NCBI GenBank assembly: GCA_012798115.1
Contig: JAAZNV010000006.1
Coordinates: 19,232-83,231, forward strand
From: a candidate division WWE3 bacterium
GTDB lineage: Bacteria; Patescibacteriota; WWE3; UBA101185; UBA10185
Length of the DNA stretch: 64,000 nt
Direction of reading: 5' to 3'
Part shown: positions 55,456 to 63,685 of the stretch, one piece after another
Layout of the letters: each line of letters starts with the position of its first letter
Numbering within the stretch: the stretch's first letter is position 1
Program-made: the position numbers and the translations under genes
Notes under the pieces: generated by a model
Databases searched by the model: none
What the model saw: the letters and a program-made list of their open reading frames with translations, nothing else
What the model was told of the DNA's origin: nothing

Positions 55456-56216
55456 TAAATTTTAGTCTTTGTACAATATCCATTTTTAGCAATATTATTG
55501 AAGATAGAACTACGTATTGCTATCATAAGATTATGGATCTGCCTATTGATTCTTTACAAGATAAGGAGTTAAGCTCAGAAGTGAATAATAAATCTTCCTC
55601 TAAGAAAACCTTAATTATTCTGTTTACCTTTTTGTCTTTAGTGCTCGTATTATTTGGTATTCTCTATGGTGTTAATACGGGTGTCTTTAATTCTATACTT
55701 AAGATAAAAACTGATGAGAATAAAGAAGATTTAAGTGTAATAAAAAATACTGTTGATGGCAAAGACACAGCTTTTGGAAGTTTAGTCAATAAAAGTGAGG
55801 TTCTAACTCAAGAAATATCAGCAAATGATTTTCTAACTTTTAAGGAAAAGATGCTTTCTGGGATAAGCGATGAACTTTGGAATTGGAAGGATGATTTTGC
55901 TCACGTCAATGTTTACGAGATGAATAAAGGGGAAGGTATTATTTATGTGGGTTTTTTGATTCCTGGTGATAGTAGATTTAGTGGAAGTGATAATATCAAA
56001 GAACATTCTGCTGTTAAGGTGTCTTGTTTAGATGAATTTACACTTGTTGTTGATCCATCAAGCTTAGAAGTTACCAAAACTGGGGTAAATTTATTTGATA
56101 ATCTTATACCTGGAAAGGACTCACTTCTTTTTAAATGTTCCGATGAAAAGTGTAGAGAAACAAGAAAGGAGTGTCTCATATTAAAAGATGCAAATACAAA
56201 TACCAATACTGAGTAA
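55401..56216 (+). CDS. Membrane-anchored hypothetical protein (likely start is the internal MDLPID near 55533).
   Basis: TM ([21 protein letters not shown]) then a Cys-containing domain. Confidence 0.4.
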
Positions 56217-58386
56217 CTTTCGTATTAAATATGTGCTATATGCTATAGCTCTTCTTTTTGTTATTTGTTTTCCTTTAAAACACTCTTTTGCTTGTAGCAC
56301 TTGCCCATCTGGGTGGAAAGATGGTGGAGATGTTTGTTACACAGGTGAGGGGTGTCCCTCTTGGGTGTGTAGATGGTGGGGGTGTGTGAATTGGAAGTGT
56401 GGTAGGTGTAAATATGCTGCTGGTGGTTGTGAGGCTTGGACTGGAGGCGTTTGTACAAAATGGTGTTGGAGGAACTACTCCCCTTATGGATACTACTGTT
56501 GTGGTCCTCGTACGCCACGAGAGTGTATAAGATGGGCTGAGGATTGTACTAAGTGTGGTTCTGATTGTGTTGCTAATGGGTGGATAACAGGTAATTGTGA
56601 GGGGAGTTGCTTCCTATGTCCTTGTACTCCAGTAAATGGAGGATGGTCAGCATGGAGTACATGTTCTAAAACATGTGGAGGAGGAACTCAAACAAGAACA
56701 TGTACTAATCCTTCTCCATCATGTGGAGGATCATCATGTTCTGGAGCATCATCTCAAGCTTGTAATACTCAAGCATGTGATGTTTTACCAATTGGTGCTC
56801 ATGATTCTTCAAATTGTAGTTGTTCTGGTCAAGTTACAGCAAGTGGATGGGCTTGTGATCAAAACAACTGGTCATCTGATTTAAATATAGACTTCTATAG
56901 AGATGGAACATCATCAACAGGAATATTTATTGGTTCAACCATTGCAAGCAGTTCAAGACCAGACTTAGGAAGTGGCTGTGGTGGAGATATAAACCATGGA
57001 TTTAAATTTACATCATCTTCTCAACCTACTGGATCTCATTCAATTTATGCTTATGCTACAGATGTACCTCTTGGCACCAAAAGCTTGCTTGCAAACTCTC
57101 CAAAGTCAATTACTTGTGGATTAACATACACACTAAAGATAAACATTAAAGATGCTTCAAATGGTTGCAGCAGTCTTGGAGAAGGAATTGAAGGAGCAAA
57201 AGTTTATGTATATAAATCAATTGGAGGAATAGCAGGAGATCCAATTACTGGCTCTCCAGCTACATCCAACTCAAATGGAGTTGCAACATTTGAAAATGTT
57301 TCAGTTTTGGATAAAAGCTTTATCATTTCAGTATCCAAGTCAACAGGAGGATCAAACCCAATATATTACCAGCTAACTTGTCCAACACTTTCACTATACA
57401 AGATAACTTTTGATCCTTCTCCTACTGCTTGTTCTACTCAAACTATTAATCTTGGAATAAAACAAATTAAGAAAGATCCATGGTTAACAGTAATAGATGG
57501 AGATATCTTTTCATCAAATGTATCTGTTGTTGTTCCTCAAGGAGAAGGATCAGGTGATTTTTCCTTATCTCTTGTTAATTCAAAAGACAAAGTAACTGGA
57601 GGATATATATTTACCAAAGGATATATATCAACAAATGACAACTCTTTGTATGAGCCCAGTCTTGGAGGAAAAATCTTTGATATATCTCAAAGATCAAGCT
57701 TAAATCATGATGATATATCTTTAATGAACCTATCAAAAAGAAGCTTTTCTCCTCCAACTCATGATATGGTTGTAGAAACATCAAGCATATCATCATTTGA
57801 AGCTGGAAAGGTATACAAGATATCAGTTTTGGATTTTAACAATAAAATCTCATCTTCTCCAGTTGTCTATACAGTATCTTCATCATCTGAAGAAGAGTTA
57901 TCTTCAAAAGGAGTATCAACTGCAATACTATACATAACAAGTGATAATAATGATACTGATATAGTCTTTAAAAACTCATATACATCATCAAACAACAACT
58001 CAAGGTTAATAATAGTTACAGATTTAAATGTTGTAGTATCATCAAATGTTGGGTTTTCTAACATATCAACATACACCATAAACTCTTTACCATTAATTCA
58101 AGCTGCAATAATATCTTCAAAAGATATATCTTTTGAATCCAAAGGTACTTCTCCTGCATCAGATATTCCTATCATGGTAACAGGACCTTTGATTACCTCA
58201 TCAAATATATTACGAGGAAGAAACATTGGGTCATTAAATGGGTATTATCCTTCCTTAGCAGTATCTTTTTATCCTAAATATCTTTATGATATTGCAGTTA
58301 TAGAAAGATACATGTCAAAGACATATGATATAAGATCATATACAGGAATATCTTCTTATGATCTTCAATTTGATTATCAACCTTAG
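56188..58386 (+). CDS. Secreted Cys-rich protein with a thrombospondin type-1-like repeat and a long Ser/Thr-rich C-terminal region.
   Basis: Signal peptide, then about 28 Cys in 190 aa, including [21 protein letters not shown], which matches the TSP1 consensus WSxWSxCSxTCGxGxxxRxRxC. Confidence 0.6.
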
Positions 58387-61248: not shown

Positions 61249-61290
61249 TTTTAAAGGCCCTATCAATTATTGTTTTGATAAGGCCTCCAA

Positions 61291-62583
61291 TTAGTTAAAG
61301 TCTTTTCTGTTGTAGAAAACATCTCCTTTCTCGTCTACATTCCAAACTCCTTGTGCCCATTCTCCAGTGTAGGGATTGTATGTGCAGTTAGGAAAGGGTG
61401 CAGATTTAAACCCTATTTTCTCTCCGCAACTGCTGTATGATAAAGCTCTGCAATCATCACAGCAGTAACGATACTCACAGTCTTTACACACCAGTACGTC
61501 GTCCTTTGTATTTTTCCAGATGCTTTGAACGTTACTCTGGTTTACTAGATCACTTAGTCTAGATTCTCTACTGTTACCTAACACAATACTTCTCGAAAAG
61601 ATACACGGTAAGTAATCTCCGAATTCTGTTATAGTGATCTTTCCTTTGAGACACGAGTTGAAGGATCTAGATTTGCATATTGACTGTAGATCTGCGTAAA
61701 AGTTTGGTTTTGTTACTAATCCGTACTTTAGGTAGTACTCTAAGTCAGGTACTGTATCAATATCAGATCCCCGACCGGAAGGTCTGACCAGATCTACTTT
61801 TCCGTCTTTGATCCCTAAACCCTTTCTAAATTCTATAGTTTCTTCGATGGTATGTTGGTTTATTTTGGTTACCACTATTTCTGCCCTGACACTTACACCG
61901 AGATCCAAAAGCAATTTAATATTTTCTACAGTTCTCTTAAAACTTCCTGGTGTTCTTGTCACGGCATCATGTATCTCCTCTTTGTTTGAGTATAAAGTGG
62001 TTGCAATACTTAAACCCAATTTCTTAATGCATTGTATTTCAAGTGGTTTTACCAATGTGAGATTAGTAAAAAGCTCAACAAATTTCCAACCAACTTGCAG
62101 AGCGTACTCGGACAAATCTAGAACTGAGTGTCCAAATTTGTCTTTGTACTCGAAGGGTTCCCCACCTATAAACTGACACTTTCTGCATCCAAGAGAAAAT
62201 CCCTCTTCAATCAAACTTTTCCAGTCCAAATGTGTGAGAGTTTCTCTAGTTTCGCTATGGATGTCTTCTTTTGGAGGTCTTGAGTTAGAGTAACAGTGGA
62301 TGCACTGCAAGTTACATTTTTTAGTACAGATCTCAAACCACACAAAATCCAATTTAGCCACGCCTCTATCTTTCGGTATTGTACTGTCCACATATCTGTC
62401 AGTTACTTCGGCCAATCCTAATTTCTGTAAATCCTTCCAATAGTTGTCTTCTTTCTGACCATTCTGGATAATACTGACCGCGGATTTATTAATAGAGTAA
62501 ACTTTTTTGGAATTTGTATCTAGTATTGCCCCTCTTAATGCTCCTGTTACAAGGTACACCCCTGGTGAAAGCTTGTAGGCCAT
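61291..62583 (-). CDS. Radical SAM/SPASM-domain peptide-modifying enzyme with an N-terminal PqqD-like RRE (RiPP maturase candidate).
   Basis: CNLQCIHC (Cx3Cx2C) about 90 aa from the N-terminus; C-terminal Cys cluster CKDCEYRYCCDDCRALSYSSCG...C (SPASM/twitch-like); N-terminal AILDTNSKKVYSINKSAVSIIQNG...LQKLGL resembles PqqD/RRE. Confidence 0.8.
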   Translation of the reverse strand: MAYKLSPGVYLVTGALRGAILDTNSKKVYSINKSAVSIIQNGQKEDNYWKDLQKLGLAEVTDRYVDSTIPKDRGVAKLDFVWFEICTKKCNLQCIHCYSNSRPPKEDIHSETRETLTHLDWKSLIEEGFSLGCRKCQFIGGEPFEYKDKFGHSVLDLSEYALQVGWKFVELFTNLTLVKPLEIQCIKKLGLSIATTLYSNKEEIHDAVTRTPGSFKRTVENIKLLLDLGVSVRAEIVVTKINQHTIEETIEFRKGLGIKDGKVDLVRPSGRGSDIDTVPDLEYYLKYGLVTKPNFYADLQSICKSRSFNSCLKGKITITEFGDYLPCIFSRSIVLGNSRESRLSDLVNQSNVQSIWKNTKDDVLVCKDCEYRYCCDDCRALSYSSCGEKIGFKSAPFPNCTYNPYTGEWAQGVWNVDEKGDVFYNRKDFN

Positions 62584-62635
62584 TATTATATTATCTCCTT
62601 TCTCTAGTTTATTGGTGAGTATACTACACTACCTT

Positions 62636-63394
62636 TTAATATTTTTCATCTTCATCTTTATTGTACTGCGGATATTTTTCTTGCATTATTTTAAGGAATT
62701 GGTATATGTCTATTTGTTTACCGATTAGGTAGTTGTTCCAGTCCTCCAAAATATCTTTCTCCACTTTTTGTAAATGTTTATGTCCAACAGATTCTTTATT
62801 ACACTTAAAGTAGTACCCAGTTTTATTTAATCTTAACCTCATTTCATTATCTGAAATTAATTCTATTATTGCGTGTTCCAATACAGAATATTTAAATAAA
62901 GAATGAAGAAATTCATGAACTAAATAAACTAGGCTATAGTTTTTCCAGTGTTCGTACTGTCCCCAAAAAATTTTGTTGTGAGAATTTTTACCTATATGTA
63001 ATAATGAGCCAAATATAAACACATCAAAATTATTATTTGGTATAGGTATTCTTAGAATATTCTGCATCTCCTTATGTATGAGATCTTTGTTTGTTTTCCA
63101 TTGTTTCTCTAACCACTCTTTATGCTCTGATGCATTTTTTAACAAAGTAGAGAACTGCTTTGATTCAAGCCCATCTTGCAATATTCCTACAATATCCTCA
63201 TTTGCCTGATTTAGAATATTCTTAACATTATCGTTAAGTAATAATTCTTGATAGTTCCCCTGTAGTAATTGATACCCCATTTGGTACTTTTTCCACAGTG
63301 AATTTTGTAAGTCCACCCACCCTTCAATATCTGGATTTTGCATTAGCCCTGTAATAAATAGTATTTCTTTTGAGATTTTAAAATGTAGTTCCAT
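62636..63394 (-). CDS. HExxH-motif protein (putative zinc metallopeptidase or scaffold) between the precursor and the radical SAM gene.
   Basis: LVYLVHEFLHSLF then ...VLEHAIIE; no other family recognised. Confidence 0.5.
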   Translation of the reverse strand: MELHFKISKEILFITGLMQNPDIEGWVDLQNSLWKKYQMGYQLLQGNYQELLLNDNVKNILNQANEDIVGILQDGLESKQFSTLLKNASEHKEWLEKQWKTNKDLIHKEMQNILRIPIPNNNFDVFIFGSLLHIGKNSHNKIFWGQYEHWKNYSLVYLVHEFLHSLFKYSVLEHAIIELISDNEMRLRLNKTGYYFKCNKESVGHKHLQKVEKDILEDWNNYLIGKQIDIYQFLKIMQEKYPQYNKDEDEKY

Positions 63395-63424: not shown

Positions 63425-63463
63425 TAAAAAAAGCGGACGGAATTTCTTTCGATAACTCCGTCC
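63425..63463 (-). terminator. Intrinsic terminator or attenuator hairpin (GGACGGA-loop-TCCGTCC then U7 on the minus strand) 7 nt after the precursor stop.
   Basis: Inverted repeat 63435-63441 / 63457-63463 and A7 run 63425-63432 on the plus strand, seen directly. Confidence 0.55.
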
Positions 63464-63469
63464 TTGAAG

Positions 63470-63628
63470 CTATTGTTTTGGTGCACATTGTGGTATGCAG
63501 TTAGGACTACACCCATTACCTACGTCTGGGCTGCATCTGGAAGTAGTTTTATTTACTTCAGATACGTCAGTCACAAGAAGAATTTCAGGTTTTTCTTCTT
63601 TAGTACTTGGTTTTTTAGCAGTATCCAT
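63470..63628 (-). CDS. Candidate RiPP precursor peptide (52 aa) with a Cys-rich C-terminal core.
   Basis: MDTAKKPSTKEEKPEILLVTDVSEVNKTTS|RCSPDVGNGCSPNCIPQCAPKQ, with four C-x-P-x units. ATG 63628 has RBS GAGAAAGGAG 8 nt upstream. The track ORF extends to GTG 63703, but the predicted promoter lies inside that extension. Confidence 0.55.
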   Translation of the reverse strand: MDTAKKPSTKEEKPEILLVTDVSEVNKTTSRCSPDVGNGCSPNCIPQCAPKQ

Positions 63629-63657
63629 AGCACGTGCTCCTTTCTCTAATAATGCTA

Positions 63658-63685
63658 ATATTACACTGCTTGAAACAACTGTCAA
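63658..63685 (-). promoter_or_regulatory. Sigma70-like promoter for the precursor operon (TTGACA, 16-nt spacer, TAATAT on the minus strand).
   Basis: -35 at 63680-63685 and -10 at 63658-63663 (minus strand), read directly. Confidence 0.4.

Follow-up and report, generated by a model that had tools for sequence, protein, structure and literature searches.

What does a small protein with an HExxH motif do when its gene lies between that of a peptide precursor and that of a radical S-adenosylmethionine (rSAM) peptide maturase? The question is raised by a stretch of 64,000 nucleotides from a candidate division WWE3 bacterium (contig JAAZNV010000006.1, positions 19,232 to 83,231; hereafter the window), in which an open reading frame (ORF) at 62636..63394 on the minus strand starts at an ATG and encodes 252 amino acids. 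Its product is 100% identical to the GenBank hypothetical protein GYA37_00920 of a candidate division WWE3 metagenome-assembled genome (Patescibacteria, or candidate phyla radiation, CPR). The original prediction, made from the letters of the window, had called this ORF the middle gene of a cluster and its product a candidate zinc hydrolase and leader peptidase of unrecognised family. The gene does lie between that of a 52-aa Cys-rich precursor and an rSAM/SPASM gene. We assign its product to a protein family here termed family A and describe it as a putative zincin-fold enzyme of the cytoplasmic type. It is very probably a zincin-type metallohydrolase, and we lean towards a metallopeptidase that processes the rSAM-modified precursor in a three-gene module for a ribosomally synthesised and post-translationally modified peptide (RiPP). 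That it removes the leader specifically is proposed more tentatively.

Family A and its predicted fold

Searches of Pfam and NCBIfam (both at E up to 1) and of PDB sequences returned no match for the HExxH protein. A set of 107 diverse family A members likewise matched no Pfam family (E up to 0.1), no NCBIfam family (E up to 1) and no PDB sequence, in keeping with the "unrecognised family" of the original prediction. A word-indexed search had suggested only 8 homologues (45-59% identity), a count overturned when 1.84 billion cluster representatives (clusters at 50% identity) were searched exhaustively with a profile. The latter search places 447 representatives in family A at E up to 1e-3 and 86 at E up to 1e-30, mostly from Patescibacteria/CPR and nearly all ~250 aa in length. 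When a 26-sequence alignment was used as the query in a scan of one genome per species, 80 family A loci were found, again mostly in Patescibacteria (labelled WWE3, Woese-, Pacei-, Jorgensen-, Wolfe- and Gracilibacteria, among others), with a few from DPANN archaea and other bacteria.

The motif VHEFLH occupies residues 159-164 (codons 62920-62903, minus strand), with H160-E161-F-L-H164 encoded at 62903..62917, and the downstream Glu that had been read from the sequence corresponds to two conserved residues, E178 and E184. The HExxH motif alone is weak evidence, because the protein is rich in His and Glu and the motif turns up by chance in 3.5% of its shuffles. We judge it to be real because 138 of 138 full-length members, whose pairwise identity is roughly 22-59%, all have H160, E161 and H164. 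Conservation across the same 138 members reaches 99% for H174, W99 and G135, 96% for D182 and Y157, 95% for Y153, 94% for R186, 91% for E184, 83% for N183 and 78% for E178 (otherwise Q). The residues H174, E178, D182, N183, E184 and R186 (H174 to R186 codons at 62837..62875, minus strand), which comprise the candidate third metal ligand and other putative active-site residues, are each kept in 34-35 of the 35 rSAM-linked members. Further downstream is a conserved G-H motif (G204 91%, H205 90%), in which H205 (codon 62780..62782, minus strand) is a possible transition-state-stabilising residue.

The window protein has no signal peptide, hydrophobic segment or membrane segment. Signal-peptide-like N-termini are found in ~9 of 155 distant family A members. 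Two distant members are putative fusions, P0035 (603 aa) and P0080 (491 aa), which carry a beta-lactamase/transpeptidase-like (PF00144) or an M23 peptidase (PF01551) domain. They hint at cell-wall or other peptides as possible substrates of an rSAM-independent branch of the family.

An AlphaFold2 model of the HExxH protein, built on an 8-sequence alignment, has a pLDDT of 90.5 and a pTM of 0.84. It comprises a helical region in the N-terminal 115 residues, a small sheet (strands 2-6, 122-127, 135-138 and 141-144), and helices at 153-163 and 171-190. HExxH sits at the C-terminal end of the first of these two helices, while H174, E178, D182, N183, E184 and R186 are all located on the second. The predicted model has the two-lobed layout of a thermolysin-like fold, with an edge-strand sheet before the active-site helix and a helical lower lobe, and in a structure comparison its first 18 matches were all zinc peptidases. 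Foldseek found nothing significant in the PDB (best E 1.8), its weak matches being mostly M1 enzymes, including the lanthipeptide peptidase EryP. The gluzincin- or thermolysin-like fold that the original prediction suggested looking for is therefore what the model predicts. The fold evidence is consistent but moderate, and family A would be a remote, sequence-undetectable relative, or an analogue, of the gluzincins.

Candidates for the third metal ligand on helix 171-190 are H174, E178 and E184. E184 lies 20 residues past H164 (HExxH-x19-E), the same linear spacing as from H146 to E166 in thermolysin, and is preceded by an Asn. H174 is better conserved than either Glu. E178 is, we presume, about as deep in its helix as the Glu ligands of M1 enzymes and thermolysin. 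A mean-field direct coupling analysis (DCA) of covariation, based on 216 sequences (202 effective), yielded the helix-helix pairs 153-182, 150-181, 156-175, 157-182 and 164-174. These pairs are noisy, with i+j spread from 331 to 346, and part of the signal comes from near-invariant positions that are lost together.

Gene context of families A and B

The single conserved neighbour of family A is an rSAM/SPASM gene, present at 42 of the 85 loci covered by neighbour clustering. When only the 52 loci flanked by at least 2.5 kb on each side are counted, it was found in 24, and within 700 nt in 20. The two genes occur in all four relative arrangements, of which downstream and convergent is the commonest, and they do so in many CPR lineages. 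Average-linkage clustering splits family A into two halves. In the half that includes the window protein, 34 loci are rSAM-linked, 8 are unlinked and 9 are undetermined, with the rSAM gene within about 1.3 kb in 34 of the 42 classifiable loci; the other half has 1 linked and 20 unlinked loci. Co-occurrence with the rSAM gene, which had been put forward as a check on the zinc hydrolase proposal, is thus borne out in the window's subfamily. The co-directional precursor-HExxH-rSAM order of the window, in which the HExxH gene is inside the operon, recurs in L005, L012 and L013. Besides the rSAM gene, the only recurrent neighbour of family A is a GAF-domain histidine kinase gene (PF13492, PF00512, PF02518), located just upstream of the cluster in 7 of the 85 loci (e.g., L013:4139-5569, plus strand). 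An ATP-grasp gene is not a conserved neighbour at the family A or rSAM loci examined.

A scan of metagenome contigs with the rSAM alignment gave 80 loci (35-100% identity), the window's own contig being among them as Ga0302250_1000024 (329 kb). Of these loci, 8 carry family A and 32 carry a different HExxH protein of ~285 aa, termed family B, with the motif IIHEFGHxYW…AFCxEY (layout IIHEFGH…E199…C204-x-E206; e.g., L095:6672-7535 and P0159). Family B occupies the position of family A beside the rSAM gene. It is downstream of and convergent to the rSAM gene in 30 of its 32 loci, with 109-285 nt between them that hold the precursor gene, and at none of the 80 rSAM loci do families A and B occur together. 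An hhalign comparison of the two families aligned only HExxH (probability 1.2-1.3%), so that no sequence relationship is detectable. No Pfam model matches family B, whose 174 relatives are all named "hypothetical" and carry the source labels Woese-, Davies- and Roizmanbacteria. It adjoins an rSAM gene in all three members sampled, and its predicted structure is gluzincin-like.

Genes of M16 (insulinase-type) peptidases (PF00675 and PF05193) flank the rSAM gene at L112:5895-7151, L116:3381-4637, L126:3411-4694 and L129:7726-9030. M16 is the only peptidase in the near-identical L112 and L116, and it is found together with family B in L126 and L129. The notion that M16 replaces the HExxH partner as a general rule was rejected, since M16 and family B stand together in two of the four M16 loci. 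Where at least 1.5 kb flanks the rSAM gene on either side (36 loci), family B was found in 18, family A in 5, M16 only in 2 and none of the three in 11. In clusters without family A, the slot can therefore be filled by family B or by M16.

Small ORFs with CxP units accompany the rSAM gene in 31 of 39 family A loci, and none were found at rSAM-less loci save on one truncated contig. These precursor ORFs combine a hydrophobic leader motif, E-[IL]-x-[LK]-V-[TS], with a core of repeated C-x-P units; the leader motif reads EPEIxLVT in the rSAM-scan loci, as against KPEILLVT in the window. Precursors of this kind, homologous to that of the window, adjoin the rSAM homologue in the majority of related loci. 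The precursor tails were compared using ORFs downstream of the rSAM gene in L092-L171 (e.g., L131:6310-6549 and L103:1849-2088). Family B-linked precursors end in Pro-rich tails (…PPxPPGPN, …PPKPN, …CYPG), whereas family A-linked precursors end right after the last CxP unit, that of the window as …CAPKQ. Many precursor cores read C-x-P-D/N, which may point to Cys-to-Asp/Asn thioethers of a ranthipeptide-like kind.

Two further variants, one a precursor and the other precursor-like, were observed. In a subgroup of rSAM homologues (L150:5389-5739, L152:6258-6584, L160:6272-6556 and L161:6264-6578), up to ~ten tandem "QCWPRQ(Q)" units follow an acidic stretch, and these loci adjoin tig-clpP-clpX-lon-like genes and have no HExxH or M16 neighbour. 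At L163:6817-7365 and L168:4074-4679, a protein of 182-201 aa encoded downstream of the rSAM gene has a twin-arginine-like N-terminus (RRSFIKTSLKYLAG), a C-x-P run and a C-terminal PF01471 domain. By its appearance, this is a CxP "precursor" joined to a module that binds the cell wall (peptidoglycan).

On the minus strand of the window, the elements follow one another as promoter-like site, precursor gene, hairpin with a U7 run, HExxH gene and rSAM gene. The precursor gene (63470..63628) encodes 52 aa, MDTAKKPSTKEEKPEILLVTDVSEVNKTTSRCSPDVGNGCSPNCIPQCAPKQ, with the leader motif PEILLVT and a core of four C-x-P units. The promoter-like site upstream of it, TTGACA-16-TAATAT (63658..63685), has 10 of 12 consensus matches. 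It is a consensus match only, as the 14 such sites in the region are not above the 10.7 expected from shuffles. Between the precursor and HExxH genes is an intrinsic-terminator-like hairpin (63463-63435) with a U7 run (63432-63426), together spanning 63426..63463. Upon folding, the hairpin has a stability of -20 kcal/mol (z = -3.6), which none of 200 shuffles equalled; a simple terminator scan gave no call at this hairpin. A hairpin is found in the same place in L005, with a U8 run, and in L013. The hairpin of the window is likely an attenuator that keeps the precursor mRNA in excess.

The HExxH gene starts 31 nt after this putative attenuator (U7 ends at 63426, ATG at 63394), as the original prediction had it, and the spacer between the HExxH and rSAM genes is 52 nt. 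The ribosome-binding site (RBS) that had been described as weak could not be found at all, there being no GGAG-like or other Shine-Dalgarno-like sequence within 32 nt 5′ of the ATG. Such a sequence is also missing before the HExxH gene in L005 and L013. The Shine-Dalgarno sequence GAAAGGAG is found ahead of the precursor gene (8 nt upstream) and of the rSAM gene. An identical 12-nt context, TAGAGAAAGGAG, also stands ahead of the precursor gene (63629-63648) and of the rSAM gene (62584-62605), both on the minus strand, and the latter gene may have its own promoter-like site at 62712-62685.

The rSAM/SPASM peptide maturase gene (61291..62583, minus strand) encodes 430 aa with PF04055 and PF13186 by Pfam. 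Its product has a CX3CX2C motif at C90/C94/C97 and seven conserved C-terminal Cys, and an alignment of the rSAM family shows invariant Cys residues. No NCBIfam model scored above its cut-off; the best was TIGR04193 (97 bits vs. a cut-off of 175), and the other best sub-cut-off matches were AhbD-like and StsB/AlbA-like. A hairpin at 61249-61290, AGGCCTTATCAAAACAATAATTGATAGGGCCT, lies between the stop codons of the convergent infB (plus strand) and rSAM (minus strand) genes and could be a bidirectional terminator. Elsewhere in the window, 56188-58386 (plus strand) encodes a 732-aa Cys-rich protein with an N-terminal hydrophobic segment. It has no Pfam match at E up to 0.01, and by eye a stretch of it resembles a thrombospondin type-1 repeat.

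Function of the HExxH protein

We favour a processing peptidase because of the invariant HExxH and the conserved polar residues on the next helix, the confident peptidase-like model, the cytoplasmic location, the close linkage, in any orientation, of the window's subfamily to one rSAM subfamily and its precursor, and the replacement of family A by family B in sister clusters. The leader would be the most economical target, because the three-gene cluster encodes no other peptidase and family A-linked precursors have nothing to trim C-terminally. The operon layout, with a strong RBS and a terminator for the precursor gene, no RBS for the HExxH gene and an RBS for the rSAM gene, fits a stoichiometric substrate and a catalytic peptidase. 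In the mechanism that we propose, the 52-aa precursor would be in surplus owing to the terminator hairpin after its gene, and the rSAM/SPASM enzyme would cross-link its Cys-x-Pro core. The HExxH enzyme would be made at a low level, from a read-through transcript and with no Shine-Dalgarno sequence. Its HExxH histidines and one residue of the next helix (H174, E178 or E184) would hold a divalent metal, and E161 would activate water. The enzyme would then cut the precursor, most likely taking off the PEIxLVT-containing leader. Metal binding, hydrolysis, the substrate and the cleavage site are thus what we infer from the gene, its conserved motif, the similarity in fold and the gene linkage. The zinc hydrolase of the original prediction gains support from the peptidase-like fold model and the rSAM linkage, whereas its leader peptidase draws on gene context and its single downstream Glu gives way to a choice among H174, E178 and E184.

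Several observations weigh against this reading. The family A profile had no match among PDB sequences, an hhalign comparison of family A with thermolysin aligned only 11 residues around HExxH (probability 1.5%), and the covariation hints that the H174/E178/D182 face, not the thermolysin-spaced E184, is turned toward the HExxH helix. The co-occurrence of M16 and family B in two loci means that the HExxH partner need not be the leader peptidase and could trim another part of the precursor. The linkage is also incomplete from either side. About half of the whole of family A has no rSAM gene within 6 kb, most rSAM homologues are without family A (present in just 8 of 80 loci), and 11 of the 36 well-flanked rSAM loci have no family A, family B or M16 neighbour. 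Neither an rSAM gene nor a precursor gene is nearby in 28 of the 52 well-flanked family A loci, and relatives close to the window protein are among such solo members (P0003, 59% identical, and P0005 to P0008). These last figures, together with the distant fusions and signal-peptide-like N-termini that suggest roles outside RiPP maturation, would suit a general or housekeeping cytoplasmic CPR peptidase with no dedicated rSAM partnership, whose task could be protection or turnover, with the peptide degraded rather than matured. We consider this unlikely. In the window's subfamily, a linkage of 34 vs. 8 loci in variable orientation and in many lineages is far above chance, the probability of two given genes lying within 6 kb of each other in a 1-Mb genome being ~1% by our own estimate. 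Moreover, the rSAM gene is the sole conserved neighbour, family B fills the same slot and never alongside family A, and the HExxH gene is embedded between the precursor and rSAM genes in four operons, including that of the window.

A peptidase of the same pathway might instead leave the leader alone and trim a C-terminal follower or spacer, or cut between the CxP units of multi-unit cores. The precursor C-termini do track the type of partner, and in L126 and L129 family B is accompanied by M16, a classic family of RiPP leader peptidases. However, the family A-linked precursors, including that of the window, have little after the last CxP unit to trim, and the absence of another peptidase from the window's cluster also makes this alternative improbable. 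Equally to be weighed is a zincin-fold enzyme for non-hydrolytic tailoring of the core, such as a metal-dependent reaction that hydroxylates the Asp, Asn or Pro of C-x-P-D/N units, as zincin-like HExxH partners of rSAM maturases have been proven to be oxygenases (PMC12636437). R186 could in principle bind the carboxylate of a 2-oxoacid, and the coexistence of M16 and family B leaves room for a non-proteolytic HExxH partner. Such tailoring is nonetheless doubtful, given that no NCBIfam model, that of the alpha-ketoglutarate (alpha-KG) HExxH family included, matches any of the 107 members at E up to 1, and that the family A model is structurally nearer to peptidases. Patescibacteria are, furthermore, generally fermentative anaerobes without a tricarboxylic acid (TCA) cycle, in which a reaction dependent on O2 and 2-oxoglutarate is unlikely. 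A partner of the rSAM enzyme that has no catalytic activity and a relic HExxH, and that acts as a scaffold or binds the peptide, could find a use for the helical N-terminal 115 residues, which have no assigned role, but it is barely credible: an invariant H160, E161 and H164 and five polar residues conserved at 90-99%, in a family this divergent, are the signature of a working active site. We also attach little credence to a bolder scenario in which zincin folds were recruited twice independently, as families A and B, for chemistry beyond simple leader removal on CxP-repeat peptides. That chemistry could be, for example, oxygen-independent tailoring or an obligatory cleavage coupled to rSAM cross-linking, and if true, the three-gene module would define a RiPP class not described before, common among CPR bacteria and also found in some DPANN archaea.

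With a processing peptidase as the favoured function, the significance of the locus lies in the annotation and genome mining of CPR peptides rather than in a surprising mechanism. Patescibacteria have tiny genomes and few recognised natural-product pathways. The RiPP module, although undescribed, looks conventional, and family A is its zincin-fold component, a family so far unclassified. This compact module of precursor, rSAM enzyme and metalloenzyme recurs across many Patescibacteria lineages, no part of it is covered by a curated model, and its precursors are distinctive in that a conserved PEIxLVT leader precedes a core of Cys-x-Pro repeats. With family A (at least 447 clusters at 50% identity) and family B defined, annotation pipelines could name several hundred "hypothetical proteins", and two new marker genes would be available for mining genomes for this type of RiPP. 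The small (~250 aa), soluble proteins are also candidate peptidases for maturing rSAM-modified peptides in heterologous hosts.

Comparison with known systems

Literature searches on CPR/Patescibacteria returned no description of this system. What comes nearest is a pair of peptidase clusters, unnamed but ascribed to the "zincin superfamily", in CPR ATP-grasp (graspetide)/SPASM loci (Makarova et al., 2022; PMC8939145). An ATP-grasp ligase, the defining gene of those loci, is not conserved at the loci described here. The two clusters are possible counterparts of family A or family B. Assignment of family A to the M1, M4, M16 or alpha-KG HExxH families failed every sequence test that was run.

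In its proposed role, the HExxH protein resembles the M1 zinc aminopeptidases, which include the class III lanthipeptide leader peptidases AplP and EryP. It differs from them in having no Peptidase_M1 match in Pfam, a sequence identity of only ~10%, and a length of 252 aa rather than 600-900 aa, without the M1 N- and C-terminal domains. The GxMEN exopeptidase motif is absent, only G135 being conserved in the corresponding strand, and the near-invariant H174 between HExxH and the Glu has no counterpart in M1 enzymes. The spacing to E184 is x19, whereas HExxH-x18-E is expected of M1. Unlike thermolysin and pseudolysin (M4 gluzincins), the HExxH protein is cytoplasmic and has no propeptide.

The original prediction had also pointed to FxsB-type systems, in which HExxH proteins co-occur with rSAM/SPASM maturases. 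The alpha-KG/Fe(II) HExxH hydroxylases (IPR026337/TIGR04267) are these FxsB-type partners and include ChlH of ChlBH, BpmH and PflC/PosC, of which ChlH, BpmH and PflC act beside or fused to rSAM enzymes as oxygenases (PMC12636437). This kinship did not hold up, as the model of that family recovers none of the 107 family A members, and the solved HExxH domain of ChlH (8s5f) is not the closest structure to the HExxH protein model, scoring below real peptidases. The rSAM enzyme of the window is not FxsB-like either, judging from its sub-cut-off NCBIfam matches. An HExxH gene beside an rSAM maturase gene should therefore be read with caution, since it does not always encode an FxsB-type oxygenase.

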